Positions 9,462 through 62,487 are shown, numbered from the stretch's first letter. The stretch is 64,000 nt of DNA from an uncultured Candidatus Saccharibacteria bacterium (GCA_964642835.1 CAZXQA010000001.1:132314-196313); one strand, 5' to 3'. Notes: generated from the sequence alone by a model not told the origin. Program-made: numbers and translations.

Positions 9462-9575
9462 ACGGTAGTCGAGAATCCCTGTCGGGCAGCCAAGTCGTGC
9501 GACGCACGAGACGCGTCAAAACAACAATATTTTAGGTCTGCATAGAGCGCACCCGTTTAGGACAGGGAAACCTGG
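9462..9575 (+). repeat. tRNA-Gln-derived intergenic repeat, copy 1 (3'-end+CCA module, hairpin, 5'-half-like module)
   Basis: TCGAGAATCCCTGTCGGGCAGCCAAGTCGTGCGACGCACGAGACGCGTCAAAACAACAATATTTTAGGTCTGCATAGAGCGCACCCGTTTAGGACAGGG. The first 17 nt equal the tRNA-Gln 3' end plus CCA. The last part matches the tRNA-Gln D-arm/anticodon stem (TAGGACAG) with the D-loop deleted. Confidence 0.7.
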
Positions 9576-9707
9576 GTGAGCTTCACATATTGAAAATAAC
9601 CAGATTTCATGTTAATTTAAATCCATAGTATTCAATAATTAGATTGCCCAATGAAGACACAAGGCTAACTTTATAAGTTAATTATCCGTTCAAGCGGAGC
9701 TTTGTGT

Positions 9708-11132
9708 ATGCAATCTAAAACTCCCATCAAAAGACCGGTTATTCTCTCATGCCGGCACCTAAAAAAGACATTTAACACCGTAGATGTTCTGAAAGACATT
9801 ACGTTTTCAATTCGCCAAGGCGAAAAGATTGGTGTTGTTGGACCAAACGGCTCAGGAAAGAGTACGCTTTTTGCGATGCTCGCCAATCTGATTGAAAAAG
9901 ATTCTGGACTCATTACATATGGTAAGGGAATAAATGTGGCTTACTTACCCCAAATCCATGAGCAGGAGGAATTAAGTGGTGGAGAAATGGCCAGGAAGGT
10001 ATTGAAGCCGATTATGGGTTCCGATGCAGATCTGTTTCTATTGGACGAACCAACTAATAACTTGGATGTGGATGGGTTAGAAATGGTTGAGAAATTCGTA
10101 AGAGAAAACTCCAGCGCTTTTCTAATCATTTCGCACGATCGTACATTTCTAGATCGTACCGTCTCCAAAATTATTGAGCTAGACCCATACTCCAAAACAG
10201 CCTACGTATATGAGGGTAATTATTCCTCATATATAGAAGAGAAAACAGCAAGAATTGAACGAGCCTGGCATAAATACAGCGACGCTCAAGAGAAGACTCA
10301 AAAACTTTCTAAAGAAGTTGACCAGAGACTTTCTTGGATGAAAAAGATTGAGCAAAAACGGCTCGATATCAAAAAGATTCCAAAGAACATAACTGAAAAG
10401 CCTCACGCTGCGGTTTTGCGTGACAAAGAAGCCAAGGCGGGCAGAAGGGCACGTCTCCTTAAGGATAGGCTTGAAGCTCATAAAGAAGAAGTTAAAGCAG
10501 AGATTGAAAAGCCTGCTCGCGAGCTTCCATTGAAAATTAACTTTGAACCAGTGCGAGGCAGTACCAAGGTTCTGAGTCTCACTAAAGTTGTAAAAAAGCT
10601 GGGTTCAAAAGTAATTGGACCAATCGATGTCTTTATCCAGTATGGGGATAGGGTTCACATAACAGGTAAAAATGGAGTTGGAAAAACAACACTTCTTAAG
10701 CTTATGTTAGGTGAAATGGTGCCAGATAAAGGAGAATTTGTTGTAGGGGAAAACGTTCGCACTGGGTATGTAGAACAATTGAAGGATAGAAATTCTCTAT
10801 CTCAAACAGCCTTAGAGCATTTCCTTGAAAAGACGAAACTCGATCAAACAAATGCTCGCAAAATTCTCAATCGTTTCCGTATTACAACGGAAGATATTGG
10901 TAAAAAAGTTGGCGAATTAAGTCCAGGAGAGTATTCAAGGTTGGTGATAAGCGAATTGGTTGCGATTCAGCCAAATTGCATCATTCTCGATGAACCAAGC
11001 AACCATCTTGATCTTGAGGTTCTGGAAGAGCTTGAAAAGGGGTTGGTAAATTTCCCAGGTACGTTGATTGTGGTGAGCCACGATAGATATTTTGTCGAGA
11101 AAATTAAACTCACCAGAGAAATTTCTCTGTAA
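9708..11132 (+). CDS. ABC-F family ATPase (tandem ABC domains, no TMD; EttA/Uup-like translation factor class)
   Basis: Two Walker A motifs (GPNGSGKST, GKNGVGKTT), two signature/Walker B sets, charged inter-domain linker. GGAG box 8 nt upstream of ATG 9708. Confidence 0.9.
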   Translation: MQSKTPIKRPVILSCRHLKKTFNTVDVLKDITFSIRQGEKIGVVGPNGSGKSTLFAMLANLIEKDSGLITYGKGINVAYLPQIHEQEELSGGEMARKVLKPIMGSDADLFLLDEPTNNLDVDGLEMVEKFVRENSSAFLIISHDRTFLDRTVSKIIELDPYSKTAYVYEGNYSSYIEEKTARIERAWHKYSDAQEKTQKLSKEVDQRLSWMKKIEQKRLDIKKIPKNITEKPHAAVLRDKEAKAGRRARLLKDRLEAHKEEVKAEIEKPARELPLKINFEPVRGSTKVLSLTKVVKKLGSKVIGPIDVFIQYGDRVHITGKNGVGKTTLLKLMLGEMVPDKGEFVVGENVRTGYVEQLKDRNSLSQTALEHFLEKTKLDQTNARKILNRFRITTEDIGKKVGELSPGEYSRLVISELVAIQPNCIILDEPSNHLDLEVLEELEKGLVNFPGTLIVVSHDRYFVEKIKLTREISL

Positions 11133-11164
11133 AATCTAGCTTCTCATGGAGTTAGACTGATCTC

Positions 11165-11335
11165 GGGCGCCTTAAGAGCTACCCATCTTGAGCAGGGAAC
11201 TTTTTAGCTATTTTCAATGGTTCGCTCGTTGTAAAATAAGACTATTCTGGGACTCGGTTCGATTCCAAGACCCGCAGCCAAGTCGAGCTTAGCTCGAGAT
11301 GTGTTAAAACAACGATATCAGATACATATAGAATC
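11165..11335 (+). repeat. tRNA-Gln-derived intergenic repeat, copy 2 (long form with 5' AGCAGGGAACTTTTTAGCTATTTT module)
   Basis: Shares about 130 nt with copies at 18630 and 25753 (…CCCATCTYGAGCAGGGAACTTTTTAGCTATTTT…AAAATAAGRSTATTCTGGGACTCGGTTCGATTMC…GCAGCCAAGTCGAGC…). Confidence 0.65.
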
Positions 11336-11352
11336 TATCGCTACACTTTTGA

Positions 11353-13800
11353 TCAATTATTTTGTGTTTGAGTTGTCGTGACGGATGCACTTGGTGCGAT
11401 ACGAAGAAAGAGAATTAGGAGCAGGCTGAATTCGAAAGCGCCAATGATCGGAGCGCTCCATGCGAGTCCTAAGAGGCCAAATGGGATACCAAGCCCGAAC
11501 AAGGCGAGGAATTTTGCCGTATGCGTGCTGATTTCACTGATGTAGAGCGTGCGGGTCTTTCCGAATGCGGTGAGCGCCGCCCGCAGAAGTCCGACCGGTG
11601 CAAAGGCGACACACATGAACATGATCTGAAAGTAAATAACGGATTCTGGATAGTTTGGAAAGAGGATGCTGTATACAAAAGGAGCGCACGCTATTCCGAA
11701 TATGACCATCGGTATCGTGAGAAGGAAAAGAGCCCCCGTTTTACGGAGTATCGAGCGCTTAAGTTCGGGGGTGTGTAGGTGCGTGCTTAGGTGCGGCAAC
11801 GTAATCGTGCCGATGGGGAGAAGCTGGAATACTTTCATGATTGGCGTTGCGGCGAATGTCTGGATGGCGGTGGCGGTAGGGCCAAGAAGCCACCATACAA
11901 AGATTTTATCGAGGTTTTCCGAAATGGTACGCAATATCTGCATGGCGGTAAGATGGAACCCGAGGGAAAGGGAAGAATCGCTCTCGGGACCGACTGCCTG
12001 CCGACGTACGGTCAGAAATACGAGTATCCCGACAATCGTTTGGACACCCAGGACCCCTGCGACAATAACGATAAGGTTGTTTGAAAGAAGAAGTATCGGG
12101 ATGCTCCCGAGCGCGAGCCCGACGAAATATATGACGGTTACGGATGCGCTCACTCCAAAGCGCTTTTTGCCCTGCCAATAGTTCATGGCAAAGACGCTGA
12201 AGGTGTCGGTGAGCGGTACAAACGGAGCGGAAACAACAAATGCCCAGCCAAGTGAAGAGTTTCCGCTAAGGAGAAACCATGCGCCGATGACCGAGGCGGC
12301 GAGCGTCCCGAGCATGCCCCATCGTAAGCGCGCCCGTAGCATCGGCCACACACTACCGTCATTGCCTTGGGCCACCGCGCGTACGAGCGCGTTGTTCATA
12401 CCGGGAAGCGTGGAGAGGCTGAGTATGCTAAGCGTGGCTATAAGATAGTTGTACGACCCAACCACTTCGCGCGGCACGCGGGCCGCCATCGTCGTCACTA
12501 CCGCGAGCGAAGCGAGCAAGGCTCCGAAACGGCCGATCGTAATGTAGAGCGCGTTGTGCGTCGATTCCTTTAGCGGCATGGCGTCGGGGGTGCGGAGGCG
12601 TTCGCGAGAGCCGCGTATGCCGAACATGGTTCGAAGGCGAATCGCATACTTTCGGGCGGCAAACTTTATAAATTGCCGCAGGTTAGAAACACCATATGTC
12701 TGCATGAGATATGCGACAAATCCGAGCGGGCTACGGTTTGTCTCATGTTTCCAGTATGCATACCAAAGAGTTGGTACGTTGCCGATAGGCGAATAGCGTT
12801 CCTCGTGTATGGTATTCGCGTAGTTTTCGTACGCTCGCCGCTCATTCCTTGAAAAGGGGACGGCTTCTAACTGTTCAAGAAACCAGGCGGGAATCGGCGC
12901 TTGCCAGCGCTCTTTGAGGTAGCGGGCGGCAAGGAAAACTTCAAGGCTGAATCCAAATCGCCGCGCCGATGCCGCTACCGCTTCCCAGTCGACTGGGAAG
13001 GCCTCCATAGCACGAAGTGCGTCTGCAACCCAACGTAGCGTACGCTGGCTGTTTCCTTCGGTGCCATGAATCATGAGATGGATAAGAAAATACTCATTCG
13101 AGAGCCGGAAGCACGGTATGCCGTCGATATCCATGCGTACAGCCGTTTGCCACAGAACTGTGCGAAGAGCTTCGGATGAAGGGGTTTTTAGAAGAAAAAG
13201 ATCGATAGTAGGCGTGTGGTGCGAAAGTGAGAAGATGTTCCAATGGACGTCAACTTCGAGATCACCAGGCCCTATGAAGAGCGTCTCCTTAATGACCTGG
13301 TAAATGCTCGAGACGGGATGGAGTGCGTCGGGCGCATAGGGGATACCATGATGAAAGCCATGTTGATGCAAGAGGGTTGTCATCTGGTATCCGTATTCCG
13401 GCGGTATGAGAATATCGGCATCGCCCAAAAAGCGTGAACCCCGGTCGCGATAGACTTCCAATAGGAGTGGTGTACCCTTTAGGACGAGAATGGGGATGTG
13501 GTGTTTGTCGCAGAGCGTGGCGATACTCTTGGTGATTGCAAGAATGCGTTGGTTGCGCACCCAGGCGCTACGGTATGCACCTTTGATACGATCGTAATAC
13601 TCGTCTTTTATACCCAAACGCTGCATGCGCAGATAGATGAGGGGTACAAGACGGAGATAAACGCCATCGATGCTCTCGAATGTATTGTGCTGAATCCAGA
13701 TCCGCCAAAGGCTCGGGAAATCGCTGTCGCGACATAAAACAAGTTCAAGAAAGGCTTCTTCGTCGAGTGTGGGAAAGCTGTCTGGGTATGGAAGAGGCAT
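11353..13800 (-). CDS. fusion protein: N-terminal uncharacterised nucleotidyltransferase (NTP_transf_5-like) + C-terminal Wzx-like polysaccharide flippase (about 12 TM helices)
   Basis: 815 aa. N-terminal half has LGDADILIPPEY (GDxD nucleotidyltransferase motif) and is soluble. C-terminal about 400 aa is polytopic with oligosaccharide-flippase-like helices. Confidence 0.6.
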   Translation of the reverse strand: MPLPYPDSFPTLDEEAFLELVLCRDSDFPSLWRIWIQHNTFESIDGVYLRLVPLIYLRMQRLGIKDEYYDRIKGAYRSAWVRNQRILAITKSIATLCDKHHIPILVLKGTPLLLEVYRDRGSRFLGDADILIPPEYGYQMTTLLHQHGFHHGIPYAPDALHPVSSIYQVIKETLFIGPGDLEVDVHWNIFSLSHHTPTIDLFLLKTPSSEALRTVLWQTAVRMDIDGIPCFRLSNEYFLIHLMIHGTEGNSQRTLRWVADALRAMEAFPVDWEAVAASARRFGFSLEVFLAARYLKERWQAPIPAWFLEQLEAVPFSRNERRAYENYANTIHEERYSPIGNVPTLWYAYWKHETNRSPLGFVAYLMQTYGVSNLRQFIKFAARKYAIRLRTMFGIRGSRERLRTPDAMPLKESTHNALYITIGRFGALLASLAVVTTMAARVPREVVGSYNYLIATLSILSLSTLPGMNNALVRAVAQGNDGSVWPMLRARLRWGMLGTLAASVIGAWFLLSGNSSLGWAFVVSAPFVPLTDTFSVFAMNYWQGKKRFGVSASVTVIYFVGLALGSIPILLLSNNLIVIVAGVLGVQTIVGILVFLTVRRQAVGPESDSSLSLGFHLTAMQILRTISENLDKIFVWWLLGPTATAIQTFAATPIMKVFQLLPIGTITLPHLSTHLHTPELKRSILRKTGALFLLTIPMVIFGIACAPFVYSILFPNYPESVIYFQIMFMCVAFAPVGLLRAALTAFGKTRTLYISEISTHTAKFLALFGLGIPFGLLGLAWSAPIIGAFEFSLLLILFLRIAPSASVTTTQTQNN

Positions 13801-13807
13801 GGAAATA

Positions 13808-14497
13808 TTAACGCATTGAACGTCTACGATCGATACTGGCCTTCATGATCTTGAGATAGTCGCTATGTCCGGCGAGGTTGAGAGTTGTATTAGTTTGGTG
13901 AACACGCCGTAGATAGAGTACTTCTTGAAGCATGATATGTTTCAGACCAAATTCTTCCGCTCGCATTGTCCAGTCAATAAATTCTCCGATACGATACGCC
14001 TCGTTGAAAGGTCCGACTTTCTTCATGCTCGCTGCCCGTCCAAGAAATGTGGCGGATATTCTGTTGGCAAGAGGCCCCTCAAGAAAGCGTTTTGTGGTGC
14101 GAACAGAATCAGGCAATTCGGGGCTGATAAAATTTTCTAACATACAGTGAACAATGTCGAGATCTGGATGTGTATCGAACATTTCCATTTGTCGTGCAAG
14201 CTTATTTGGTTTCCAAATATCATCAGCGTCGGCGAGCGCGATGAAGGAGCCTCGTGCGATGCGGATGCCCGAGTTGCGTCCAGCGGCAATGCCGCGATTG
14301 GCACGGTGAGATATTACGGTGATTCGGTCGCCGAACGTCTTGAGGGTGGCAGAGGTGGCGTCTGTCGAACAGTCGTCTACCACGATAAGCTCAAGAGGGG
14401 TATATGTTTGGTCAAGAATGCTGTTAATGCTTTCGGCAAGATACGGTTCGCCATTGAGTACTGTCATAACTACGGAGACAAGAGGATTCATACTCAT
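13808..14497 (-). CDS. glycosyltransferase family 2
   Basis: 229 aa. VSVVMTVLNGEPYLAESINSILDQTY, DDCSTDAT, ADADD (DxD). 4-nt overlap with the upstream kinase gene. Confidence 0.85.
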   Translation of the reverse strand: MSMNPLVSVVMTVLNGEPYLAESINSILDQTYTPLELIVVDDCSTDATSATLKTFGDRITVISHRANRGIAAGRNSGIRIARGSFIALADADDIWKPNKLARQMEMFDTHPDLDIVHCMLENFISPELPDSVRTTKRFLEGPLANRISATFLGRAASMKKVGPFNEAYRIGEFIDWTMRAEEFGLKHIMLQEVLYLRRVHQTNTTLNLAGHSDYLKIMKASIDRRRSMR

Positions 14498-15624
14498 AGA
14501 GAGGGAGCGAGAGACGCCGGCCGGGCGTCAAGAAAGGCGCGTATCGTTTCGGGTACGGCGCGCACGTGAGGGCCCAACTCAAGAATAAAGCACGGTGTCT
14601 TCCCAATGATATCGGCGAGAGAAGAGGTCTTCGATGAGGGTGCGAGCGGAAGTTGAAAAAGGGTAGTCGGCACCAGGGCAAGCATGGCTTCAAGTTTTGT
14701 GGCGGGGATAATGCGCGTATGCGAGGCGATGCGCGGAATGAAAATCGCCGCAAGCGGCGCGCACTCCTTTAATTGCCGGGGAAATAGTTCGGATAGAAAC
14801 ACGATCGCTTTTTCAGCCTCTTTTTTCCCGACGCCCTCCGCATTCCAGATAGAGGTGCGAAATTCGGGGAAGTTGGGGAGTTGCTCGGGCTTTATTTTGA
14901 CGGAATTATAAAGGCTGTGCACGCTATTTTGCTCAATGAGAACATAATCGTCCCCGATATAATCCATACCCGACATGAGGCAGGAGAGCGCGGTGGTTGA
15001 TTTTCCCGAGCCGCCCACGGCAGATAACAGCACGGCTCCATTCTCTGTGCCCACCGCGGCTCCATGAACAAAGTGAATGTCGTGATGGGAGAAAAACCAA
15101 TGCAATATAGTGCGCAACGGCGCCGCATGCATCCACTCGGGCACGGCGGCGGCATCATGAATCCAAAAGTAGGCTGTCTGCGAGGCGTAATCGTAGAGAT
15201 ATAGTATGTCCTCGCCGCGCACGAATACGCCCCGGAACGTCGGGTCTGACTCCTTTGCTTTGTCGGGAGTTTCCAGGTTGCCGTATGCAGGATCAGACCA
15301 AGGGCCGCCTAGCGGTACGCCGGAGGAAACACTATCGAGCAGATGAATGGTAAGATCGGGTTCGGCATTACTTGCGGTGGGCAGGTGCGCGAAGGCGCGC
15401 GCGGCGAATTCTGCAAAACGCGGGGCATGCGCACGTATTCGGACGGTTTTACCGGCGATGCGGCGTGTCGTATCGATCGAAGATTTTGCCGAAATGACGG
15501 CTTCAAATGCGGGGACAAATACTTCATCGAGATAATCTCGATGAATAGTGGCGTAATGTTGCATTACGACGGTGTGTGCGTTCTGAGCCATGCGGTAAGT
15601 TTTTGTTTTTCCGACTCGCACCAA
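14494..15624 (-). CDS. HPr kinase/phosphorylase-related P-loop kinase (HprK-related kinase family)
   Basis: 376 aa. GAVLLSAVGGSGKSTTAL Walker A of the HprK C-terminal-domain type, upstream HGAAV block. Lacks the HprK N-terminal domain. Confidence 0.65.
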   Translation of the reverse strand: MVRVGKTKTYRMAQNAHTVVMQHYATIHRDYLDEVFVPAFEAVISAKSSIDTTRRIAGKTVRIRAHAPRFAEFAARAFAHLPTASNAEPDLTIHLLDSVSSGVPLGGPWSDPAYGNLETPDKAKESDPTFRGVFVRGEDILYLYDYASQTAYFWIHDAAAVPEWMHAAPLRTILHWFFSHHDIHFVHGAAVGTENGAVLLSAVGGSGKSTTALSCLMSGMDYIGDDYVLIEQNSVHSLYNSVKIKPEQLPNFPEFRTSIWNAEGVGKKEAEKAIVFLSELFPRQLKECAPLAAIFIPRIASHTRIIPATKLEAMLALVPTTLFQLPLAPSSKTSSLADIIGKTPCFILELGPHVRAVPETIRAFLDARPASLAPSL

Positions 15625-15637
15625 ATTAGAGAATCCG

Positions 15638-16003
15638 TTAGTCCGCCTTTCGCTTCGGCCAGCCCATAGCGTCCACGTCGTGAATGGGGTCGGTGAGAAT
15701 CATTTCCTGCATGTCGGTATAGATTTCGACCGCGGGCGCCTGAAATACCGCTTCGTCCGCAAGATCCCCCGCCTGCTCGGTCTCTCTGATCAGCCCTTCG
15801 GAGAGGAGGGTAGCGACGAATGCGGAGATAGTAGAATTCCCGAGAGGAATAGCTTTGCCGTTGCCTATGGCCGCCCATAACGCAGTCCCGTCTTGGTTCA
15901 TGCTGTAATACGAGCCGGTTTCGATATTGATGACGATCGTCTCATTCTCAAGCGTCTCGCTGATAGCGGTTTTCGAATTTATGGCGTAGGTTTTTGCACT
16001 CAT
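15638..16003 (-). CDS. PqqD-family protein (RiPP recognition element-type peptide chaperone)
   Basis: 121 aa. ETLENETIVINIETGSYYSMNQDGTALWAAIGNGKAI matches the PqqD/RRE pattern (…L.n..tg.yy.LN..g..iW..l…). Confidence 0.65.
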   Translation of the reverse strand: MSAKTYAINSKTAISETLENETIVINIETGSYYSMNQDGTALWAAIGNGKAIPLGNSTISAFVATLLSEGLIRETEQAGDLADEAVFQAPAVEIYTDMQEMILTDPIHDVDAMGWPKRKAD

Positions 16004-16041
16004 GAGTAGTTATTATACTTATCTTTGAGAAATGGAAAAGA

Positions 16042-17292
16042 TTATGGCCGTATTATCTCTCCTCTCTTCTCCGCGTTGCGCACCAAGTTCGTCGCAGAGA
16101 CAGCGTCGCGCACGGCCTGAGAGGAATGATGCTTCCGCACCCACGAAGCGGCCTCGGCGCAAAGCCGCTCGGCCAACCCCGGATCATTTAAAAGGTTGAC
16201 GCAGGCCTCAGCAAACGCTTCGGGTTCATCGGCGATGAGAAGGTGGCGATTGTGCTCAACTCCCAGTCCTTCTGCGCCGATGGCGGTTGAAACCACCGGG
16301 CGGCCAAGCCCGAACGCTTCAAGAATTTTTACGCGGGTGCCGCCTCCGGATCGAATCGGTACAAGGCAGATAGAAGCATTTTGATACACCGGCATGAGGT
16401 CCGCGCGGTTGCGGTCAAAAATGATACCGGGAGTGCCATCGGGGCGAAAGGACGAAGGCGGATTAGCGCCTACCAAATGAAGTTGCAAGGCGCCCTCGTG
16501 CAGCGCTTGTATGCGCGGCCATATTTTATCTACCAGAAACTTTGCGCCGTCGAGATTGGGGAAGTAGTCCATTTTGCCGACGAACATGAGGGTGCGCGGC
16601 AGACTGTCGGGCGGAGGAGGCAGGCGCGAGGCCTGATGCGTTGCATTAGGAATCGCTACGACGCGCTCCGGTTCGGTAAGCGCGCTTATGTTCTCCTTTT
16701 CGCGCGTAGAGGCTACGTAGATTTCTTGGAACTGAGGAAGTAAAACGCGTTCCATCATGCGAAAGAGATGAAGCCCACGCTGCAGTTCCTCGACCTTTTC
16801 GGGCGGAAGACCCGGAGTTTTGAGAAACCGCAGCTGCCGTTTCGAAAGCATCTCATCTAAATCCAGATACACCGGCTGGAGACGGTCGAGTATCAGACGG
16901 ACAAAAACGGCGGTGTCGAATGCAAAGAGTAACGTAGCGTCGATGGCTTTTTCGGCATGAAGCTTTGCAATGAGCTCGGGGGCTTCTTGGGTGGTCGCAT
17001 ATACGGATGAGGGCGAGGCTCCGGCGGAAGCTCGGCGCTCATCGAGCGTATCACTCATATGCAGGTAGGTTATTGAGGCGAAACGAGCAAGGAGCGGCGC
17101 ATCAGGCTGTCCCGATAGAGCATCCGCGTAGATAATTACTACGTGTATGTTAAAGGAATCAGCCAGCGCGTCGAGGATGTGAGCGGCGCGTTGCTGACTG
17201 CCCGTGCCGAGGCGAGTGGGTTGATCGCGCCATATCCATAAAAGATTCGGGCGAGAATCTGCAGATTTTGAGGTAGCGTACATTGCGACCAT
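16042..17292 (-). CDS. glycosyltransferase family 1 (GT-B, GT4-like)
   Basis: 416 aa. C-terminal GGGTRVKILEAFGLGRPVVSTAIGAEGL, the E-x7-E nucleotide-sugar binding region. Confidence 0.85.
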   Translation of the reverse strand: MVAMYATSKSADSRPNLLWIWRDQPTRLGTGSQQRAAHILDALADSFNIHVVIIYADALSGQPDAPLLARFASITYLHMSDTLDERRASAGASPSSVYATTQEAPELIAKLHAEKAIDATLLFAFDTAVFVRLILDRLQPVYLDLDEMLSKRQLRFLKTPGLPPEKVEELQRGLHLFRMMERVLLPQFQEIYVASTREKENISALTEPERVVAIPNATHQASRLPPPPDSLPRTLMFVGKMDYFPNLDGAKFLVDKIWPRIQALHEGALQLHLVGANPPSSFRPDGTPGIIFDRNRADLMPVYQNASICLVPIRSGGGTRVKILEAFGLGRPVVSTAIGAEGLGVEHNRHLLIADEPEAFAEACVNLLNDPGLAERLCAEAASWVRKHHSSQAVRDAVSATNLVRNAEKRGEIIRP

Positions 17293-17323: not shown

Positions 17324-17369
17324 TCGTTGCATAGAGCGGTCCCTCTTAGGACTCGAACTTTGGTATAAT
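17324..17369 (+). promoter_or_regulatory. conserved promoter module (extended -10, TGgTATAAT) for the NUDIX operon
   Basis: CGTTGCATAGAGCGGTCCCTCTTAGGACTCGAACTTTGGTATAAT. Nearly identical modules precede the genes at 39066 and 58127. ATG lies 12 nt after the TATAAT. Confidence 0.6.
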
Positions 17370-17381
17370 TTCGATATTGTT

Positions 17382-26745: not shown

Positions 26746-26751
26746 TGCCCT

Positions 26752-54438: not shown

Positions 54439-54442
54439 ATTT

Positions 54443-54766: not shown

Positions 54767-54768
54767 AC

Positions 54769-55305: not shown

Positions 55306-55502
55306 TGGGCTGTACCAGATTAATTCTGCATGAAGCGTGTTGTTTAGAATTTGAATATAAAAAGAAAAAGACCCAGCATATTTCAGCTGAGTCTACTTAC
55401 ACATTCATAAGATTTCTCCAATCTCGCCCGCCGTCGCGCGCCTCTTTCTGCGCCGCGACGGGCTTGCCGTTCCAGAAGGGTCGAACGGCTGACCTTGGCG
55501 CG

Positions 55503-55928
55503 CTATTGCGCCGACCGAGTGGGTCCGAGAACACCGAGCAGGTAGCTCGGCACTTCTTCGACAGGTTCGCGATTCGGGTCTTCCTTGTAGCCCTGGCACT
55601 TGATGTAGCCGTCTGCGTCCACGCTGGAGCGCAAGCAAGCTTCCGTCATCGGCCAGGCGCGCCTCGGTTCGTCCTCGAAGACGATCCAGAAGCACTCGCC
55701 CTCGGACTGCTGACTCGTGGCGCCGTATTTGCGGCACACCGAGATGACAGCGTTGGGGCGAACCCGTTCGTTTGTCGTGATGACTGCGACGACGGGCGTT
55801 GGAGCCATGAGGCCCCCTTCAAGCGGTGGGAAGAAATCCTTGTACATTGCATACCCCTCTTTATGGGTTACGAAAGCCAGGAATTGGCTATCTACTACCA
55901 TCTTATCATACTTAACTTGAATTGTCAA
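55503..55928 (-). CDS. hypothetical protein flanked by repeat copies 7 and 8
   Basis: 141 aa (TTG) or 131 aa (ATG 55901). Aromatic-rich globular composition. The overlapping + strand ORF 55299..55958 reads through repeat sequence and is rejected. Confidence 0.45.
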   Translation of the reverse strand: MTIQVKYDKMVVDSQFLAFVTHKEGYAMYKDFFPPLEGGLMAPTPVVAVITTNERVRPNAVISVCRKYGATSQQSEGECFWIVFEDEPRRAWPMTEACLRSSVDADGYIKCQGYKEDPNREPVEEVPSYLLGVLGPTRSAQ

Positions 55929-56022
55929 GTGCTCGAGATCCGTCGTTTTGAGTGCTAAAATAGTCTTAATTCCGTCAATCTGGCTTGGCCGATTAAGGTT
56001 CGATCACGAGACGGTCAGCCGA
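55929..56022 (+). repeat. tRNA-Gln-derived repeat, copy 8 (diverged GCTCGAGATCCGTCGTTTTGAG form)
   Basis: GCTCGAGATCCGTCGTTTTGAGTGCTAAAATAGTCTTAATTCCGTCAATCTGGCTTGGCCGATTAAGGTTCGATCACGAGACGGTCAGCCGA. Confidence 0.6.
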
Positions 56023-56135
56023 TTTTAAGTTTTTTGCAAGCGAAGCGCTCCTATACAAAAAAGCGTAAAATCGCTTCGCCGCGTCTCGCCAGAGACGCAA
56101 GAAGGTATTGGTATTTTTTGCACCTGGAAATATCT

Positions 56136-56200
56136 GTGACCGAGAGCGTACTCGCGGTCCCTGTCGGGCAGCCAACTCGTGCGACGCTCGAGATACGTCA
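56136..56200 (+). repeat. tRNA-Gln-derived repeat, copy 9
   Basis: GTGACCGAGAGCGTACTCGCGGTCCCTGTCGGGCAGCCAACTCGTGCGACGCTCGAGATACGTC. Confidence 0.7.
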
Positions 56201-56244
56201 ATACAAAGCTTTTATAAGCTCGTAAAGAGCGATATACTTTTGCC

Positions 56245-56898
56245 ATGAATCCCGAAAATAAAGCTCTGGATAGAACTTACTTCATTGCGGGCCCGCCAAG
56301 AGTTGGAAAAACAACCCTCTCATACAAACTCGCCGAAAAGATTAAAGGCCACGTTGTCTCAACAGATGCTATAAGAAGCGCGGCAAAGAAAGCGCGAGAG
56401 AATAAAACTGGCGACCTCTTTAGAACTAATTTCTACAATTCTCTTTCCGAAGAAGAATGGTTTGAAAGACATCTCAAACGACCAGAGGTGGTTGTTGAAG
56501 ACCATAACAAAGAATCCGCCGCCTTTTGGACTTCAATCGTCTCTTTTTGCAATACATTCTGTGAAGATTCTGCAATTCACATTGTTGAAGGTGCTCATCT
56601 TATTCCAGAACTAGTCGCAAGTATGGAAGATAAACCTTCTCATATTGTATATGTGGGTAACACCAATCCAGACCACTTTAAACACATGCTTGAATACAGC
56701 CGAAATAACCCCGAGCAGGATTGGATGGCTTCATTGGGATATGGAGAAGAGAAGATTCAAGCAATGGCAAATTTTGTAAGAGAGATGAGTTTGTATTTCA
56801 AGGCGGAAGCGGAGAAATACGGCTTTCCCTACTTTGAAATTTCAGATGAGGATTTCGAGGGATCGCTTGAAAAAGTTTGTAACTTTCTGTTGAAATGA
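56245..56898 (+). CDS. P-loop kinase-like ATPase (AAA_33/zeta-toxin/2-phosphoglycerate-kinase-like)
   Basis: 217 aa. FIAGPPRVGKTTLSYKLA Walker A near N-terminus, hhhhE Walker B (IHIVEGAH). Confidence 0.6.
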   Translation: MNPENKALDRTYFIAGPPRVGKTTLSYKLAEKIKGHVVSTDAIRSAAKKARENKTGDLFRTNFYNSLSEEEWFERHLKRPEVVVEDHNKESAAFWTSIVSFCNTFCEDSAIHIVEGAHLIPELVASMEDKPSHIVYVGNTNPDHFKHMLEYSRNNPEQDWMASLGYGEEKIQAMANFVREMSLYFKAEAEKYGFPYFEISDEDFEGSLEKVCNFLLK

Positions 56899-57287
56899 AG
56901 CAAGATATTCCTCAAATAATCAAAGATGTTGGTTTTGACTTCCGTTGGGATGAAAAGAAAGTCTGGGCTCTAGAGTATCCATCTGAAGAAATGGATATTA
57001 AAGAGCTGGTTTGGCATTTCAATATTCCTTTTCACTGGCACGGAGGAGAGGTATATAACCTTAAATCCAGAGAGATTATTGATAACCCAGAAAAGTATAA
57101 GGATGAATATGAAAGAACAATGAAAGCTGATACTTCGCATCCGATAGATATTATGGAAAATAAAGGTCGTTGGCTTATCCTTGATGGTCTGCATAGACTT
57201 ATGAAGTTATATATTCAGGGGCAAAAGAAAGTAACAGTTCGTAAGATACCAAGAGGGCGGATACCAGATATAACTACTGAAGAATGA
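56895..57287 (+). CDS. small protein with ParB/sulfiredoxin-like DGxHR motif
   Basis: 130 aa. RWLILDGLHRLMKL. ATGA overlap with upstream kinase and with downstream VanX-like gene. Confidence 0.4.
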   Translation: MKQDIPQIIKDVGFDFRWDEKKVWALEYPSEEMDIKELVWHFNIPFHWHGGEVYNLKSREIIDNPEKYKDEYERTMKADTSHPIDIMENKGRWLILDGLHRLMKLYIQGQKKVTVRKIPRGRIPDITTEE

Positions 57288-57946
57288 CGCAACAAATAAA
57301 GAATGGTTTACCTCTAGAAGAGATAAAGAAAATAAGAATAAACGAGACCAATGAGCCTTTAGTTGAAATTACCGAAACCGAGAAAGTTAAGCTACTCAGA
57401 GACCATAAATACTTATACCCGCATCTCAGGAAGGGAGCACAGGAGCTTCTGTATGTAGCCTCTGATAATCTTCCAGATGGACATAAACTTCTTGTTGTAA
57501 CCGCCTATAGACCTATTTGGATGCAGAAAGAGCTATACAGAAGAAGAGAGAAGCAAATGGCTAAAGCTCATCCTTTCTTGATGATTTTCCAATATCCAAA
57601 ATGGAGAAAAATGGTTAATAGATATACCTCACCTCCAGGCGGTTCATCTCATCAATATGGTGGAGCTGTTGATGTAACAGTAATAGACCCTGCTGGCAAT
57701 AGATTAGATATGGGAACAACCTTGACTGACTACGGAGTAAAAGTCCATACAGAAAATGATTTGATTACAGAAGAACAGAGGAGCAACAGGAAACTTTTAT
57801 ATAACGCTATGACTAAGGCTGGGTTCGTAAACTATCCTTTGGAATGGTGGCATTATTCTTATGGAGATAGGATGTGGGCAGCATACAGCTCACGAGAAGA
57901 TTGTTTCTATGGACCGCTTAATGAGCAAGCGAAAGGATACCACTAA
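57284..57946 (+). CDS. D-alanyl-D-alanine dipeptidase (VanX/DdpX, M15D)
   Basis: 220 aa. SSHQYGGAVDVTV (SxHxxGxAxD Zn ligands) and EWWHYSYGD. Confidence 0.8.
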   Translation: MTQQIKNGLPLEEIKKIRINETNEPLVEITETEKVKLLRDHKYLYPHLRKGAQELLYVASDNLPDGHKLLVVTAYRPIWMQKELYRRREKQMAKAHPFLMIFQYPKWRKMVNRYTSPPGGSSHQYGGAVDVTVIDPAGNRLDMGTTLTDYGVKVHTENDLITEEQRSNRKLLYNAMTKAGFVNYPLEWWHYSYGDRMWAAYSSREDCFYGPLNEQAKGYH

Positions 57947-58082
57947 ACTCTAATTCTCGTGTTATTCTGGACCAATTAAGAGTTCTGAATACGTCCACAA
58001 AGGACAGCCAACGTGAGGTAGGTTCGGACTCCGAGGAGCTTCATATTTAGAGCCATTTTTTAAATTCGTGTTTTTCCTAAAA

Positions 58083-58108
58083 CTGAGCACCCTCTTAGGA
58101 ATCGAACT
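58083..58108 (+). promoter_or_regulatory. conserved promoter module (CCCTCTTAGGAATCGAACTTTGGTATAAT) for the 58127 operon
   Basis: Third copy of the module. TATAAT 58103-58108, ATG 18 nt later. Confidence 0.6.
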
Positions 58109-58126
58109 TTGGTATAATTACTAAAC

Positions 58127-58669
58127 ATGAAATTCTTCATCGGCATTGTTCCACCTCTGGCAACCAAAGAGAAAGTCTTGGAATTCCAGAAAAGTTTTCC
58201 TTCAAATAAAATTCCTTTCTTTCACGAACCACACATTACCCTCAAAGCTCCCAGTGGTCTCACAGAAGATAAGTCTTGGCTTGCTCCCGTCATGGCACTA
58301 GTCGGAGATTATCCTCGATTTCAGATCAAGCTAGAAGGACTTGGCGGTTTTGAGGATAGGGTGTTATTCCTCAACCCTGTTTTTTCTCAAGAACTGTTAG
58401 ATCTACATATGAAATTAGTTAATCTGCTTTACCCAAATACTGAAAGTGATAATAAATTTTACGAGAGGTCTTTATTCTACCCTCATTTAACTCTAGGAGA
58501 GACAACATGGGGAGGAATGACTCCTGAGGAGTTGGTGGAAATGAAGAAGAAGGCAGAAATAGAGTTCTATAGTATCCCACCGTTTCAGGTAGATTTTGTT
58601 CGAGCCTTTCAAAAGGAAAAAGATGGTGAGCCATATCGCAAGCTTTTAGATATCCCTTTAAAAATATGA
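58127..58669 (+). CDS. 2H phosphoesterase (LigT-like 2'-5' RNA ligase / cyclic phosphodiesterase family)
   Basis: 180 aa. Two H-x-T/S-x motifs (HITLK, HLTLG) at the expected spacing. Confidence 0.8.
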   Translation: MKFFIGIVPPLATKEKVLEFQKSFPSNKIPFFHEPHITLKAPSGLTEDKSWLAPVMALVGDYPRFQIKLEGLGGFEDRVLFLNPVFSQELLDLHMKLVNLLYPNTESDNKFYERSLFYPHLTLGETTWGGMTPEELVEMKKKAEIEFYSIPPFQVDFVRAFQKEKDGEPYRKLLDIPLKI

Positions 58670-58710
58670 GTCGTTAGAACTTTATACAGTTCCCTGATAA
58701 CATTTCTTTT

Positions 58711-60486
58711 ATGGAACAGCAGACAATTAAGCAATTTGGCTGGCTAGACATCCCCAATTCAATCTGGCACTTTTTAGACAAAGACAAGCCGAGGTGGGTG
58801 TTCTTGAATGTTTTGCTATTTGTAATTTTATTTTATGACCTAGTTCCTGCATTTGTAGTAGGTAAGATAATCGACTTCTTTACTAAATACCAAGCAGGTG
58901 ATTCTCTCCGCACTTTCTACTCATATGTGATTTTCCTAGGAGTTGCTCATACTATTATCTCTCTTATTAGATTAGGAACTAAGAATAGACTTTCAAAGAT
59001 AAGTATTTCTACCAGAAGTCGTGCACGAGTATCTGGTTTTGAGAATCTAATCAACCTACCCCTTCAATGGCACGCCCAAGAAAATACTGGGAACAAGATT
59101 GAGCGTGTATTTTCAGGCAGCCAAGCTCTTAGAGAATGGGCTAGTTTTAGTAATAATACGCTATTTCCCGTCACAGTCTCTTTCATTGGTGTCTTAACAG
59201 TATTTATTTTCTTGAGCCCGATATTTTTTATTTTCCTTGTCGGATACACTGCTTTATTCTTTGGAACGGAATGGTATTTCAATAGAAAAATTGCGGAACT
59301 TAATGAGGCACACAATCGCTCTAAGCAAGAATCAACGGGAGCTTATGTAGAGAGCACTGGCAACCTTTTGTCTATCAAAGCTATGGGTTCTGAAAAACAT
59401 CTTAATTTACGAATCAAGAAAACTGAGGAATCTGCTAGAGATATCCAGTACATAATAGCTGATACAGGTAGTCGTAAATGGTATACATTCCAGACCATAA
59501 ATGGAATTTCTTTTATTTTATTCTTCTTTTTGTTAGGTCATCAATTAGTTGCTGGCATCCTCACTGTCGGTTCAATTATGGTGTATTACACTTATTTCAA
59601 TAAACTTCGTGAGGCGGCCAGCGATGCCACTGATGCCGTTACAAGAGTAATCGGACTTAAATCTGATTTAGCAAATATGATGCCTATATTCTTGGAGCAA
59701 TCGACTGTAAAGACAGGACATCAAAAATTCCCTAGAAGATGGGATAAGGTTGAGATTAGGAATGGCGATTTCTCTTATCCATCAGGCAAAAAAGCTCTTA
59801 GTAATGTAAATCTATCTTTGGGCAGAAATGAGAAGCTTGGTATAGCAGGAGCGTCTGGAAGCGGTAAATCAACATTGGTGAAGATGTTGCTTGGACTGTA
59901 TGCCTTAGAAGGAGGTGAATTTAGAATCGGAGATCGAAATTACTACGATATTGCTCATGATGACTTAATTCACAACATAGCTGTTGTATTGCAGGAAACT
60001 GAATTATTCAACCTGTCTCTTCGGGATAACATCACTGGATTAAAGAGTGTAGATGCAGACATCCTTGAGCTCGCAATAGATATATCTCAACTCAAAGATG
60101 TTTTGAAGAAGTTGCCTGATGGTTTGGACACCTTGGTTGGTGAAAAGGGTTACAAACTTTCAGGAGGCGAGAGACAGAGGTTGGGTATCGCGAGAGCTGT
60201 TTGTAAAAATGCCCCAATTCTTCTTCTTGATGAAGCCACATCCGCTCTGGATAGTAAAACTGAAAAGAAAATTATGGATAAGCTATTATCCAAATTTAGT
60301 AACGAGAAAACTCTTATAATCATTGCTCACCGTATTTCCACGCTTAAGGATACTGACAGGGTAGTTGTTTTTGAAGAGGGTTCTATCATTGAAGAAGGCA
60401 CTTATGATAGCTTGGTGGCAAATCCTAATTCCCACCTTGGGCAACTCTACGCTCTGCAAAGTGGAAGTGCCCAAAATGAGAATTAG
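58711..60486 (+). CDS. ABC exporter, fused TMD-NBD (type I exporter half-transporter)
   Basis: 591 aa. 6 TM, GASGSGKST, LSGGERQRLGIARA, LLLDEATSALD. Confidence 0.9.
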   Translation: MEQQTIKQFGWLDIPNSIWHFLDKDKPRWVFLNVLLFVILFYDLVPAFVVGKIIDFFTKYQAGDSLRTFYSYVIFLGVAHTIISLIRLGTKNRLSKISISTRSRARVSGFENLINLPLQWHAQENTGNKIERVFSGSQALREWASFSNNTLFPVTVSFIGVLTVFIFLSPIFFIFLVGYTALFFGTEWYFNRKIAELNEAHNRSKQESTGAYVESTGNLLSIKAMGSEKHLNLRIKKTEESARDIQYIIADTGSRKWYTFQTINGISFILFFFLLGHQLVAGILTVGSIMVYYTYFNKLREAASDATDAVTRVIGLKSDLANMMPIFLEQSTVKTGHQKFPRRWDKVEIRNGDFSYPSGKKALSNVNLSLGRNEKLGIAGASGSGKSTLVKMLLGLYALEGGEFRIGDRNYYDIAHDDLIHNIAVVLQETELFNLSLRDNITGLKSVDADILELAIDISQLKDVLKKLPDGLDTLVGEKGYKLSGGERQRLGIARAVCKNAPILLLDEATSALDSKTEKKIMDKLLSKFSNEKTLIIIAHRISTLKDTDRVVVFEEGSIIEEGTYDSLVANPNSHLGQLYALQSGSAQNEN

Positions 60487-60516
60487 ACACTATCGTATTT
60501 ACAAATTTTTAAACCT

Positions 60517-61026
60517 ATGACCGATTGGGATACATACTACAAAGTGCATATGAGTCGCCCGCCAAGGGACTTACTAGTTAAGGCTGTGGCCCTATGTAAA
60601 GAAAAAGATATAGCTCTTGATCTTGGAGCCGGCACTCTTGTTGAATCTAACTACTTGATCAAATCTGGGTTCAATAAAGTTGTAGCGATAGATAGTTCTG
60701 AAGAAGTAACCACTTTTGCTAAAGGTCTAAATGAGAATAGGTTGGAGGTAAAAATATCTCAATTTAAGGATTTAACTTTAGAGCCAGAAACTTACGATCT
60801 GACAACAGCTCAGTATGCCCTACCTTTCTATGGTAAGGAGGGATTCAGTGAGTTTATGGCCAAGATCGTATCTTCTCTTAAACAAGAAGGTGTTTTTGTC
60901 GGACAGCTATTTGGAGAAAGAGATGGATGGAATGGAACGAAGGATATGGCTTTTCAGAGCAAAGATGAAGCACTGGAACTTCTTAAGAAATTAATCGTTC
61001 CAGACGGCCAGCTCGTGATATTCTAG
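60517..61026 (+). CDS. class I SAM-dependent methyltransferase (small, TehB-like)
   Basis: 169 aa. Motif I ALDLGAGTL, acidic motif II VAIDSSEE. Confidence 0.7.
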   Translation: MTDWDTYYKVHMSRPPRDLLVKAVALCKEKDIALDLGAGTLVESNYLIKSGFNKVVAIDSSEEVTTFAKGLNENRLEVKISQFKDLTLEPETYDLTTAQYALPFYGKEGFSEFMAKIVSSLKQEGVFVGQLFGERDGWNGTKDMAFQSKDEALELLKKLIVPDGQLVIF

Positions 61027-61030
61027 ATAT

Positions 61031-61534
61031 ATGAAGTTATATTTTCTGATCGGTGCTTCTGGCGCAGGCAAGACTACGGTTATAAAGGAGGTTGAGAAGA
61101 TGGATCTCAAGGATCTAGAAATTTTCTACTTTGACAGTATCGGAGTTCCGCCATTTGAAGACATGGTGAAAGAATATGGGAGTGCAGACGAATGGCAGCG
61201 TGTGAAAACACATGAATGGGTACAAAAAATGAGTGAGGTTTCAGCCAAGGATGTGATTCTTGATGCTCAGGCGAGACCGTCTTTCATTGAAGAGGCATGC
61301 AAAGAAAGGGGTATCAATAATTATGAAATCATTCTTTTTGACTGCTCCGACGAGAAAAGGAAAGAAAGACTTATCGGAAGAGGACAGCCAGAATTGGCCG
61401 ATGAACGCATGATGAATTGGGCAAAGCATATACGAGAAGGCTGTGGTAATGGAGTCTGTAAGATTATCGACAATACAGAGTTAAGTCTTGAAGAAACCAC
61501 AAAGTCTCTCCTTGCCTTACTTGGTAAGGCGTAA
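61031..61534 (+). CDS. P-loop NTPase/kinase-like protein
   Basis: 167 aa. LIGASGAGKTT Walker A at the N-terminus (nucleoside/nucleotide-kinase-like size). Confidence 0.55.
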   Translation: MKLYFLIGASGAGKTTVIKEVEKMDLKDLEIFYFDSIGVPPFEDMVKEYGSADEWQRVKTHEWVQKMSEVSAKDVILDAQARPSFIEEACKERGINNYEIILFDCSDEKRKERLIGRGQPELADERMMNWAKHIREGCGNGVCKIIDNTELSLEETTKSLLALLGKA

Positions 61535-61538
61535 AACT

Positions 61539-61595
61539 GTTCGAATATCATCCCAGACGGCCAGCCAAGTCGTGCGACGCTCGAGATGCGTTAAT
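61539..61595 (+). repeat. tRNA-Gln-derived repeat, copy 10 (short form)
   Basis: GTTCGAATATCATCCCAGACGGCCAGCCAAGTCGTGCGACGCTCGAGATGCGTT. Confidence 0.65.
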
Positions 61596-61656
61596 GCAAC
61601 GCTTATCTAATTCTGTATAGTCTTAGCAAAGAACACGGGAGGCGTTAAAATATGAT

Positions 61657-62367
61657 ATGGCAGATAAATCTATTCGGATTGGACTTGGTTCAATTGATTC
61701 ACCGAAATCAGCTTTGTGGACAGTTGTAGTAGGAAACTCGCAGGTGTACTTTTCGCAAAGATCTGGAATGCAAATTTCAAAATTCAGTTTGCATGACTCA
61801 GGAAAATGGCGCTATGCGGTCAATGACTCAAACTGGTCCAAAGCAGAAGATAGGGCACTTAAAAAATGGGATAGACCAAATCCCATCTACAAGTCGTTGG
61901 TGCTAGGCCCAGCAATTGTTTTTCCTCCCATCGAGGCAGATTTACCTCTAGGTTATCCTGATACGTATACCAAAGAAACATTTTGGTTAATTCCACCAAA
62001 TTCTGAGCAGGTGCGGGTAATAATGTTATTTTTCTCTCTTGGAAATTCTCACCCAAAAGAACACTTTGAAAAACATAATATAAAACTAGACTGGTCATAT
62101 ACATTTCCAATAAAAAATAATTCAAGGCTGGGCGCAGATACTGTAACTGTTGCATCATGGCTTCAGCTTTATTCAAAAGGTGATCGCAAGCTTGTGACAG
62201 AGACATTATCGGGTGTGAAAATACATTATGATGGCGATGTAGAACCTGACATCAAAAGCACGGCCCTTCAAATTGTGACTCCTTCTGCTGAGGAGGTGTC
62301 TCAAGGTAAAACCATAACAATTTTTGAGGTAATGTTAGGTAGAGACAATCTTAGTAAAAACACCTAG
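61657..62367 (+). CDS. hypothetical protein
   Basis: 236 aa, Trp-rich, no motifs. Bounded by repeat copies 10 and 11. Confidence 0.4.
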   Translation: MADKSIRIGLGSIDSPKSALWTVVVGNSQVYFSQRSGMQISKFSLHDSGKWRYAVNDSNWSKAEDRALKKWDRPNPIYKSLVLGPAIVFPPIEADLPLGYPDTYTKETFWLIPPNSEQVRVIMLFFSLGNSHPKEHFEKHNIKLDWSYTFPIKNNSRLGADTVTVASWLQLYSKGDRKLVTETLSGVKIHYDGDVEPDIKSTALQIVTPSAEEVSQGKTITIFEVMLGRDNLSKNT

Positions 62368-62487
62368 CGCCCGAGACGCTTCGAAATTGAATTCTAAGAT
62401 ATAACAAAATCGCCAAGCAGGGCTTAACTGATTATGGTTCTATCTCGAGACGGCCAGCCAAGTCGTGCGACGCACGAGACGCGTTGA
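62368..62487 (+). repeat. tRNA-Gln-derived repeat, copy 11
   Basis: GCGCCCGAGACGCTTCGAAATTGAATTCTAAGATATAACAAAATCGCCAAGCAGGGCTTAACTGATTATGGTTCTATCTCGAGACGGCCAGCCAAGTCGTGCGACGCACGAGACGCGTT. Confidence 0.65.

Follow-up and report, generated by a model that had tools for sequence, protein, structure and literature searches.

How did a family of repeats related to a transfer RNA (tRNA) come to separate the genes in two regions of a Saccharibacteria genome? The repeats lie in a stretch of 64,000 nucleotides (nt), referred to as the window, from an uncultured Candidatus Saccharibacteria bacterium (GCA_964642835.1 CAZXQA010000001.1:132314-196313). A preliminary description of the window had listed 11 copies of an intergenic repeat related to tRNA-Gln and had offered several origins for it. 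The family is real, and of the offered origins the evidence supports one, the scars of repeated integrations targeted to a tRNA. The repeat units are probably the scars or junctions of attachment (att) sites produced by serial integration at tRNA-Gln, which would have given rise to an additive island in this genome of the Patescibacteria, or Candidate Phyla Radiation (CPR).

The copies were established by reading of the regions, repeat finding and iterated nhmmer profiles. All 11 listed copies were found again, and the window contains at least 13, all co-oriented and far above chance. The 17-mer TCCCTGTCGGGCAGCCA, previously equated with the 3' strand of tRNA-Gln plus CCA, occurs exactly four times (9476, 25847, 53568 and 56158; chance expectation 0.00), and with one mismatch (…GCAA) it forms the 3' ends of both genuine tRNA-Gln genes. 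The core GCAGCCAAsTCGTGCGA has 9 matches and the core motif CGCACGAGACGCGT has 10, in each case against 0.2 expected and all on the + strand. All units found by nhmmer at E<0.01 are likewise on the + strand and are restricted to two arrays with a guanine plus cytosine (GC) content of 36-45%; the backbone of 50-57% GC has none. The gene positions bear out the claim that the copies are located at gene boundaries. The spacings are irregular and lie between about 0.75 and 17 kb; identity among the copies is 61-95% and their lengths differ, so that a CRISPR array with its near-identical short repeats at regular 25-75-bp spacing, already discounted in the preliminary description, is rejected.

The units are modular. 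The hairpin exists in a version with an 8-nt loop (GGTTATyG) and in a loopless one, as had been noticed. The extra 5' module of the long form ('type B') is indeed shared by three copies, over 141 nt at 70-72% identity. A second 5' module ('type A') is present in four copies and the downstream module (TCTGCATAGAGCG…TGGTATAAT) in five. Additional decayed copies are found at 26575-26740, 57990-58126 and 17328-17377, and remnants of units are also contained in the spacers that follow the two tRNA genes (9321-9475 and 53417-53567).

Each array begins at a genuine tRNA-Gln gene. ARAGORN and the Rfam tRNA model call only two tRNAs in the window, tRNA-Gln(UUG) at 9249-9320 (+ strand, 60.7 bits with Rfam) and tRNA-Gln(CUG) at 53345-53416 (+ strand). 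The 3' end of both is …GTCGGGCAG-CAA (GCAG-CAA); hence, as stated earlier, the CCA is not encoded. The first gene anchors island 1 (9.3-42.4 kb) and the second anchors island 2 (53.4 kb to beyond 64 kb). The gene order DprA-SerRS-…-Dus-HolB-tRNA-Gln(UUG) is common to the window and the related genomes L097 (a metagenome-assembled genome (MAG) of Kaiserbacteria) and L155, and the order FtsE-FtsX(-PyrG)-tRNA-Gln(CUG) to the window, L131, L109, L007 and L150. The gene order kept in related genomes shows both loci to be conserved syntenic core loci, and each tRNA-Gln is orthologous to the one at the matching locus of the relatives. Behind each tRNA the GC content drops from the backbone level to that of the arrays, where the genes are accessory: an ABC-F ATPase, NUDIX hydrolases, a csoR-copA copper operon, nucleotidyltransferases, GrpB, small kinases, methyltransferases, a VanY-like peptidase and Ham1. 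These genes form cargo segments of 1-12 kb between the units. The cargo moves horizontally, because CopA of the window is 92-94% identical to that of L150 and L152 while SerRS, Dus and HolB of related genomes are 50-60% identical.

The nature of the unit becomes apparent outside the window. A pattern scan of reference genomes with a 16-mer was too unspecific, about 110 of the 118 matches being due to chance, and left 7 true relatives, all of them Patescibacteria/CPR; a stricter scan of metagenomes added 12 more. In at least 10 related CPR genomes the core belongs to an intact tRNA-Gln gene (UUG or CUG), of which it forms the 3' end, and the CCA is encoded. Directly 3' of this CCA is the palindrome A-sTCGTGCG-A-CGCwCGAGACGCGTC, followed by a small hairpin and a U-run. 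The trailer conserved in L131 and L141 is about 170 nt long and has a terminator at its end. The window units are 79-87% identical to the tRNA-plus-trailer sequences of the relatives over 64-135 nt. Because the core in the relatives is the CCA and trailer of a genuine gene, the units are, as judged from these alignments, duplicated tRNA-Gln 3' ends plus trailer. The tRNA-Gln 3' ends of other units (CCAAGACCCGCAG, GACGGCCAG) are typical of other CPR lineages, and such foreign fragments are expected if each element brought its fragment from a previous host. A scan of viral contigs for the core gave chance matches only, and neither this repeat nor recombinase/tRNA-Gln islands in CPR were found described in literature searches.

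The derivation from tRNA-Gln thus stands for the T-loop, acceptor and CCA part of the unit. It fails for the part proposed to represent the 5' half. The downstream module had been matched to that half, making the unit a permuted junction, and this similarity is equalled by 58 to 425 of 500 shuffles; in addition, GCACCCG is not complementary to TCGGGCA, and a permuted or split tRNA is rejected. Also rejected is a type A unit as a whole decayed tRNA-Gln gene, its part upstream of the T-loop aligning no better than shuffles. The units are not intact tRNAs, in agreement with the preliminary description, and none of them scores against the Rfam tRNA model even at E<=10. Rfam 15, at gathering and at permissive thresholds, has no family for the units, the trailer or the E-module described below. 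The helices predicted in type A and in the E-module have zero compensatory pairs, and the z-scores of single-sequence folds are mostly unremarkable, with the exceptions of type A (-2.8) and unit U2 (-2.5).

The encoded CCA also bears on an origin as a miniature inverted-repeat transposable element or short interspersed nuclear element, that is, a non-autonomous element derived from tRNA-Gln, or from the mature tRNA with its CCA, that transposes or retroposes into intergenic sites. The units are multi-copy, intergenic and modular, and their tRNA-derived part ends in CCA though the resident genes lack it. However, CCA and trailer are encoded at the genuine genes of the relatives, and among otherwise identical trailers (L150, L153, L155) CCA and CAA after the discriminator differ by a single substitution, so that a mature-tRNA intermediate is not needed. 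Within the window the units have one orientation and occur only behind tRNA-Gln genes, the aligned ends of three long units have neither terminal inverted repeats nor target-site duplications, and Pfam scans of the open reading frames (ORFs) of the window detected no tyrosine recombinase, transposase or reverse transcriptase. Such an origin, one of those first offered, is very improbable.

The arrangement expected of integration into a tRNA gene is seen most clearly in L155, the tRNA-Gln(UUG) of which has the same acceptor stem as that of the window. An intact tRNA-Gln with CCA and trailer (17400-17473) and an exact 19-nt copy of its 3' end (CGAATCCCTGTCGGGCAGC, at 1134) are 16.3 kb apart and enclose one recombinase gene together with defence cargo. 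An intact tRNA and a direct repeat of its 3' end thus flank a recombinase-bearing segment, in the manner of the two junction sites attL and attR. In the window, a homologous 12.4-kb element is enclosed by units U5 (26575-26740, + strand) and U6 (38878-39035, + strand). U5 forms the left end of this recombinase-bearing element. It has a decayed tRNA-Gln 3' end (GGCCAG-CAAAC; nhmmer E = 2e-8), a hybrid palindrome (TTGAGCT|AGCACGA), a long trailer and a terminator, and is located directly upstream of csoR-copA; in L150 the real tRNA-Gln, its trailer and csoR are arranged collinearly with it. U6, of type A and repeat family D4, forms the right end and is followed by the cassette 39036-42351. Type A-like units are found at the far end of recombinase elements in L152, L153 and L155, as U6 is in the window.

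A second kind of junction involves the E-module, a gene-less insert of about 150-165 nt that consists of a terminator and a spacer ending …GTGACCGA and adjoins both tRNAs of the window and that of L145. It is conserved in three genomes: the window (9321-9475, 53417-53567 and 56023-56157), L145 (958-1149, - strand) and L155 (1116-1305, - strand). The first module (9321-9475, + strand) is about 155 nt long and extends from the tRNA to the displaced copy of its 3' end; the second (53417-53567, + strand) comprises the terminator, the spacer and …CTTGTGACCGA… and is homologous to the modules of L145 and L155. The E-module stands between tRNA-Gln and a 16-19-nt stretch that repeats the tRNA 3' end of the same genome and is followed by CCA and the palindrome. 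Although the tRNAs differ between the hosts, the displaced copy equals the tRNA of its own host in all four cases, two in the window and one each in L145 and L155. The block of identity extends from the T-loop (…CGA) to the base after the discriminator. A block from the T-loop to the 3' end is classical where an element inserts into a tRNA gene and restores it. Both post-tRNA E-modules (9321-9475 and 53417-53567) also contain the tRNA fragment as a 9-nt inverted copy, and a helix, GGTCGCGAG/CTTGTGACC, is predicted in the E-module, without covariation.

The only recombinase gene found in the window by Pfam encodes a large serine recombinase of 429 amino acids (30761-32050, - strand). The protein has the three domains Resolvase, Recombinase and Zn_ribbon_recom and aligns to annotated Streptococcus and Lactococcus phage integrases with 24-29% identity over 86-96% of its length. 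Homologues with 75-80% identity number in the thousands in Moraniibacteria, Pacebacteria, Colwellbacteria and other CPR, and across CPR classes the recombinase is better conserved than are SerRS, Dus and HolB in the same genomes (50-60%). Its context was compared in 6 independent genomes, chosen through the recombinase. In 4 of the 6 (L148, L150, L153, L155) the gene is located 4-10 kb downstream of tRNA-Gln and convergent with it; the chance of a tRNA-Gln in a random 10-kb flank is about 0.03 by the author's own estimate. In L154 tRNA-Trp takes its place, and a related palindrome, TCGTGCTAGCACGA, follows the CCA of this tRNA. Relatives of the recombinase at 54-60% identity, on IMG/VR contigs, are 1-2 kb from tRNA-Ser; these contigs hold no units, so that no attP has been captured. 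The pairing of subfamilies with different tRNAs, as expected of an integrase, makes the large serine recombinase a candidate, and its being the integrase is given about an even chance. We can only infer this role, because the gene is internal to the element and no symmetric attB/attP pair was derived.

The six contexts share a common architecture, in which the tRNA is followed by the trailer, variable cargo, the convergent recombinase gene, LOOT RNA, a gene for a TerS-like helix-turn-helix (HTH) protein, an N6/N4 methylase gene, a LexA-like repressor gene and more defence cargo. The variable cargo between trailer and recombinase is a copper operon, a type I or MmeI restriction system, Shedu or HSP70. 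In the window, LOOT RNA (RF03000, 75.7 bits with Rfam) is at 32184-32301 (+ strand) and divergent from the recombinase gene, and the TerS-like HTH gene (32665-33216) and the N6/N4 methylase gene (33188-34597) are part of the conserved element core. LOOT also adjoins the recombinase in L150 (9707-9836, - strand), L152 (7597-7726, - strand) and L148 (11395-11529, + strand). The gap between LOOT and the recombinase gene, checked in four genomes, is 40-250 nt in three and about 2.3 kb in L152. LOOT is usually upstream of the gene and divergent from it; in L148 it is just downstream. These positions suggest that the orphan LOOT RNA belongs to this mobile element.

Several smaller features surround the recombinase gene. 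Its stop codon invariably abuts or overlaps a convergent cargo gene, a different one each time. A palindrome TGCATAG(n)CTATGCA (32078-32095 in the window) is found about 50 nt upstream of its start codon in the window, L150 and L155, and the downstream module of the units has a half-site of this palindrome, TCTGCATAGAGCG (9537, 25908 and 39016), with weak statistics. The palindrome and the half-site may represent a shared operator or promoter element. The csoR-copA-HMA/DsbD-cupredoxin operon (26744-30768 in the window), with an operator-like palindrome ATACCCCCTAGGGGGTAT, is directly 3' of the tRNA-Gln trailer. A csoR-copA operon stands behind a tRNA-Gln trailer in several CPR genomes (L141, L142, L150, L152), and in L152 it occurs twice in tandem with a unit in between.

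The arrays were probably built by the following sequence of events. Each incoming element would bring its own tRNA-Gln 3' end, from the T-loop to the end of the acceptor and usually with CCA, together with the conserved trailer, in which the palindromic hairpin is joined by a small hairpin resembling a terminator and by a promoter-like module. Integration at the 3' end would rebuild the tRNA from the element's copy, and the older 3' end would be pushed downstream along with everything behind it. Repeated rounds would result in an array of cargo segments, in which each junction consists of the right arm of the newer element, a tRNA 3' fragment and the trailer of the older element. The most likely catalyst would be the large serine recombinase and its relatives, and the cassettes that lack a recombinase would be decayed elements or would have been moved in trans. 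Serial insertion would account for the mix-and-match modules, the position at gene boundaries, the single orientation and the restriction to the region downstream of tRNA-Gln. The data show that the units are homologous to genuine tRNA-Gln 3' ends with their trailer, how the units are arranged, that one clean element is flanked by repeats and that recombinase and tRNA are linked non-randomly; from these we infer that the integration is site-specific, where the crossover is positioned and which enzyme is responsible.

A number of observations weigh against serial integration or against this enzyme. The loci were chosen via the recombinase, so that its linkage with the units comes from a biased sample. 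The recombinase gene is internal to the element and not beside the junction, large serine recombinases normally need no long identity between attP and attB, and most cassettes, of 1-3 genes, are without any recombinase. In L153 the unit at the far end of the element is weak (E = 0.015). No excised circle, empty site or presence/absence polymorphism was retrieved. The block of CCA and palindrome is better conserved than the T-loop, which the integration model does not predict, and the palindrome 3' of the CCA, with arms of 7 bp, has no wider dyad symmetry around which attB and attP could be reconstructed. Exact-protein look-ups for alternative island contents gave no match or contigs of the same strain only.

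The conserved block deserves a closer description. In the copies that are not tRNAs, the best-conserved part is not the T-loop; it is a 35-nt block from …CAGCCAA through the palindrome to GAGAyGCGT. The arms of the palindrome change symmetrically (TCGTGC/GCACGA, TCGAGC/GCTCGA, TTGAGC/GCTCAA), hybrid combinations of arms are found at 26610 in the window and at the tRNA-proximal end of the L155 element, and the central part is 0, 8 or 41 nt long. The block may be a protein-binding or recombination site, or it may be a tRNA processing or terminator hairpin carried in the attachment region of the element. The attB and attP sites of large serine recombinases are quasi-palindromes of about 40-50 bp around a central crossover dinucleotide. 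The centre of the palindrome as the crossover point of a serine recombinase has no support: there is no extended dyad, the attB and attP sites reconstructed from the L155 sequences are not symmetric, and the E-modules are inserted on the left side of the CCA.

The conservation of the block leaves some room for an integron-like capture system, an idea of limited likelihood. In its specific form, the unit would be an attC-like site on small, promoter-bearing mobile cassettes, which a large serine recombinase acting in trans would insert and shuffle at the tRNA-Gln/palindrome. The many small cassettes, nearly all co-oriented and bounded by units, the core centred on a palindrome, its symmetrically changing and hybrid arms and a central length that varies as in attC agree with such a platform, as do the unusual conservation of the recombinase across CPR and its 3' end, which always abuts variable cargo. 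However, no cassette bounded by the same units in two different arrays was found, some cargo blocks measure 6-12 kb or are on the opposite strand, island 2 has no recombinase within 10.6 kb, and the extended dyad symmetry is missing. In contrast to integrons, IntI is absent from the ORFs of the window and the R''/R' core GTTRRRY from the core of the unit, the cassettes carry their own promoter-like module, the site is derived from a tRNA and the array starts at a tRNA gene. A platform of this form is rather unlikely. A broader proposal, namely a CPR gene-capture system unlike any described, in which a near-universal large serine recombinase and LOOT RNA recruit cassettes at the CCA/palindrome of tRNA-Gln, is speculative and also on the unlikely side; if it were true, the unit would play the role of attC, and the arrays would be an active, shufflable reservoir of defence and resistance genes rather than passive scars.

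The trailer also invites an explanation in terms of expression. The unit would then be functional punctuation, a tRNA-like 3' processing or terminator hairpin plus a promoter, which would spread and be kept as an insulator of neighbouring cassettes, and the arrays would have arisen mainly by homologous recombination after natural transformation instead of through a site-specific enzyme. The terminator-like hairpin with its U-run, an extended -10-like sequence, TGGTATAAT, 12-20 nt before the start codon, the presence of a DprA gene and a conservation of the units between genomes (79-87%) similar to that of tRNA genes themselves point in this direction. Scans with promoter and terminator consensus sequences were, however, not above chance, and covariation, an Rfam family and, for the most part, remarkable folding z-scores are lacking, as described above. 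Homologous recombination alone provides no route to the first duplication of a tRNA 3' end, and it leaves the host-identical 16-19-nt copies bounded at the T-loop unexplained. Punctuation as the origin of the arrays is improbable.

Serial integration at tRNA-Gln, the preferred explanation, has close parallels. The tycheposons of Prochlorococcus seed additive islands at specific tRNA genes; new elements push older ones distally there, and incomplete tRNA copies as well as degenerate elements lie dispersed in the islands (Hackl et al., bioRxiv 10.1101/2020.12.28.424599). Of 501 tycheposons, 474 carry tyrosine recombinases of one particular clade, and seven other tRNA/tmRNA genes serve as targets (bioRxiv 10.1101/2020.12.28.424599). 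The present arrays resemble them in the streamlined genome, the island abutting a tRNA, the distal pushing, the scattered partial tRNAs and degenerate elements and the adaptive or defensive cargo, and some elements are similar to phage satellites (TerS-like gene, repressor). Unlike in tycheposons, the candidate enzyme is a large serine recombinase and the target is tRNA-Gln; neither the window nor the gene lists of the recombinase loci contain a tyrosine recombinase, which alongside a replication module characterizes a tycheposon. The duplicated segment here includes more than 30 nt of conserved trailer palindrome, and junctions with a partial tRNA follow one another much more closely, at about one per 1-7 kb.

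The SCCmec and other staphylococcal cassette chromosome (SCC) islands at rlmH (orfX) of staphylococci are moved by the large serine recombinases CcrAB and CcrC. Integration takes place at the 3' end of this conserved gene, and tandem cassettes are located between short direct repeats, with recombinase-less 'pseudo-SCC' in the same arrays. The arrays in the window share with SCCmec the large serine recombinase, here a candidate, the tandem accretion, the delimiting site repeats and the cassettes without recombinase. They differ in the target, which in SCC is a protein-coding gene and here a tRNA, in the recombinase family, which is only distantly related (the best phage-integrase matches here being those at 24-29% identity), and in the repeat, which in SCC is about 15-18 bp long and has no conserved structured trailer.

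Phages and islands reportedly integrate into tRNA genes at sublocations such as the T-loop and the 3' end, as Williams is said to have described in 2002. With this classical integration the arrays have in common the identity block from T-loop to 3' end, the rebuilt tRNA and the displaced fragment that marks the far end. In the classical case, however, a tyrosine integrase is encoded by an adjacent int gene, none of which was found among the window ORFs, and the junctions here carry extra conserved modules. Integron attC arrays, finally, are similar in their co-oriented small cassettes and in their imperfect palindromic sites of variable central length. The arrays thus differ from known islands in four ways: the CPR lineage, the tRNA-Gln target, the probable class of enzyme, and the structured trailer with its density of junctions. 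Probably, they represent a known way of building genomic islands, here unusually dense and driven by an unusual enzyme.

The CPR/Patescibacteria comprise a large share of bacterial diversity, have very small genomes and acquire genes in ways that are little understood. The present findings suggest tRNA-Gln as the point of entry for a large part of their flexible genes (metal resistance, restriction-modification, Shedu, CBASS, Hachiman and nucleotide-modifying enzymes). The repeats are a simple sequence signature by which such islands and their internal junctions can be found in fragmented metagenome assemblies. If the recombinase is the integrase, it would be a natural large serine recombinase that targets a tRNA and has thousands of close variants, of interest to genome engineers, and the orphan LOOT RNA would gain its first functional context.

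Short-read contigs of several CPR genomes end exactly at a tRNA-Gln unit (the ends of L109 and L144, the starts of L010 and L136), and in the Logan assembly of the window's own strain the end of L147, which corresponds to about 9283 of the window, is a break at the tRNA-Gln unit. These breaks fit a unit that is multi-copy in those genomes, and such islands would then be systematically lost from MAGs.

The remaining units, all on the + strand, are as follows. In island 1, U1 (9476-9580) consists of an exact 18-nt copy of the tRNA 3' end, CCA, the palindrome without loop, an AT hairpin and the TCTGCATAGAGCG/promoter-like module; over 100 nt it shares 79% identity with the trailers behind tRNA-Gln in L097, L131 and L141, and the ABC-F cassette 9702-11132 is downstream of it. 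U2 (11165-11340), of long type B and repeat family D2, has a foreign tRNA-Gln 3' end, TTCGATTCCAAGACCCGCAGCCA, and compensated palindrome arms (TCGAGCT/AGCTCGA). An isolated downstream module (TGCATAGAGCG…TGGTATAAT; 17328-17377, repeat family D5) is upstream of two NUDIX genes. U3 (18630-18790) is of type B with a looped hairpin and was found by repeat finding, nhmmer and alignment. U4 (25753-25940), also of type B, has the host-type 17-mer, CCA and the full downstream module.

In island 2, U7 (53568-53660) consists of an exact 16-nt copy of the tRNA 3' end, CCA, the looped hairpin and a terminator; the cassette 53674-55047 lies behind it. U8 (55154-55310) is a type A unit, 80% identical to the right end of the L155 element, with the tandem motif TGTCACTTT-TGTCACTTTTT upstream. 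U9 (55929-56157; repeat families D6-D8) is a truncated type A unit that ends GGTCAGCCG and is followed by an E-like spacer. U10 (56158-56240) has the host-type 17-mer, CCA and the loopless palindrome and precedes the cassette 56245-57946. U11 (57990-58126, repeat family D5) is decayed (GGACAGCCAAC…), has a promoter-like module and precedes the cassette 58127-61534. U12 (61539-61640) is a short form detected by core-motif matches and nhmmer, and U13 (62367-62500), of type A, was detected by core-motif matches and repeat finding, with Ham1 and PNPOx as the genes behind it.

The tandem direct repeat TGTCACTTT-TGTCACTTTTT-GA(A/G)G is located directly 5' of type A units in three genomes, at 55154-55178 in the window, at about 1400-1425 (- strand) in L155 and at about 3320-3345 (- strand) in L153; L152 has the variant TGTCTCATT. 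At the right end of the element, this repeat could serve to bind a protein.

Three further segments of the window were noticed. A methionyl-tRNA synthetase gene (18840-20270, - strand, 45% GC) is located inside the low-GC accessory array and not in the backbone. A 6-kb block of glycosyltransferase and polysaccharide-synthesis genes (11353-17292, - strand) has 48-56% GC, is on the strand opposite to the units and is situated between U2 and the isolated promoter-like module at 17328; it may be part of the backbone or else high-GC cargo in inverted orientation. The region 55299-55958, which separates two type A units, comprises about 630 nt of 54% GC with ORFs that overlap on both strands and have no Pfam match; it is perhaps a piece of backbone-like or foreign DNA of high GC.

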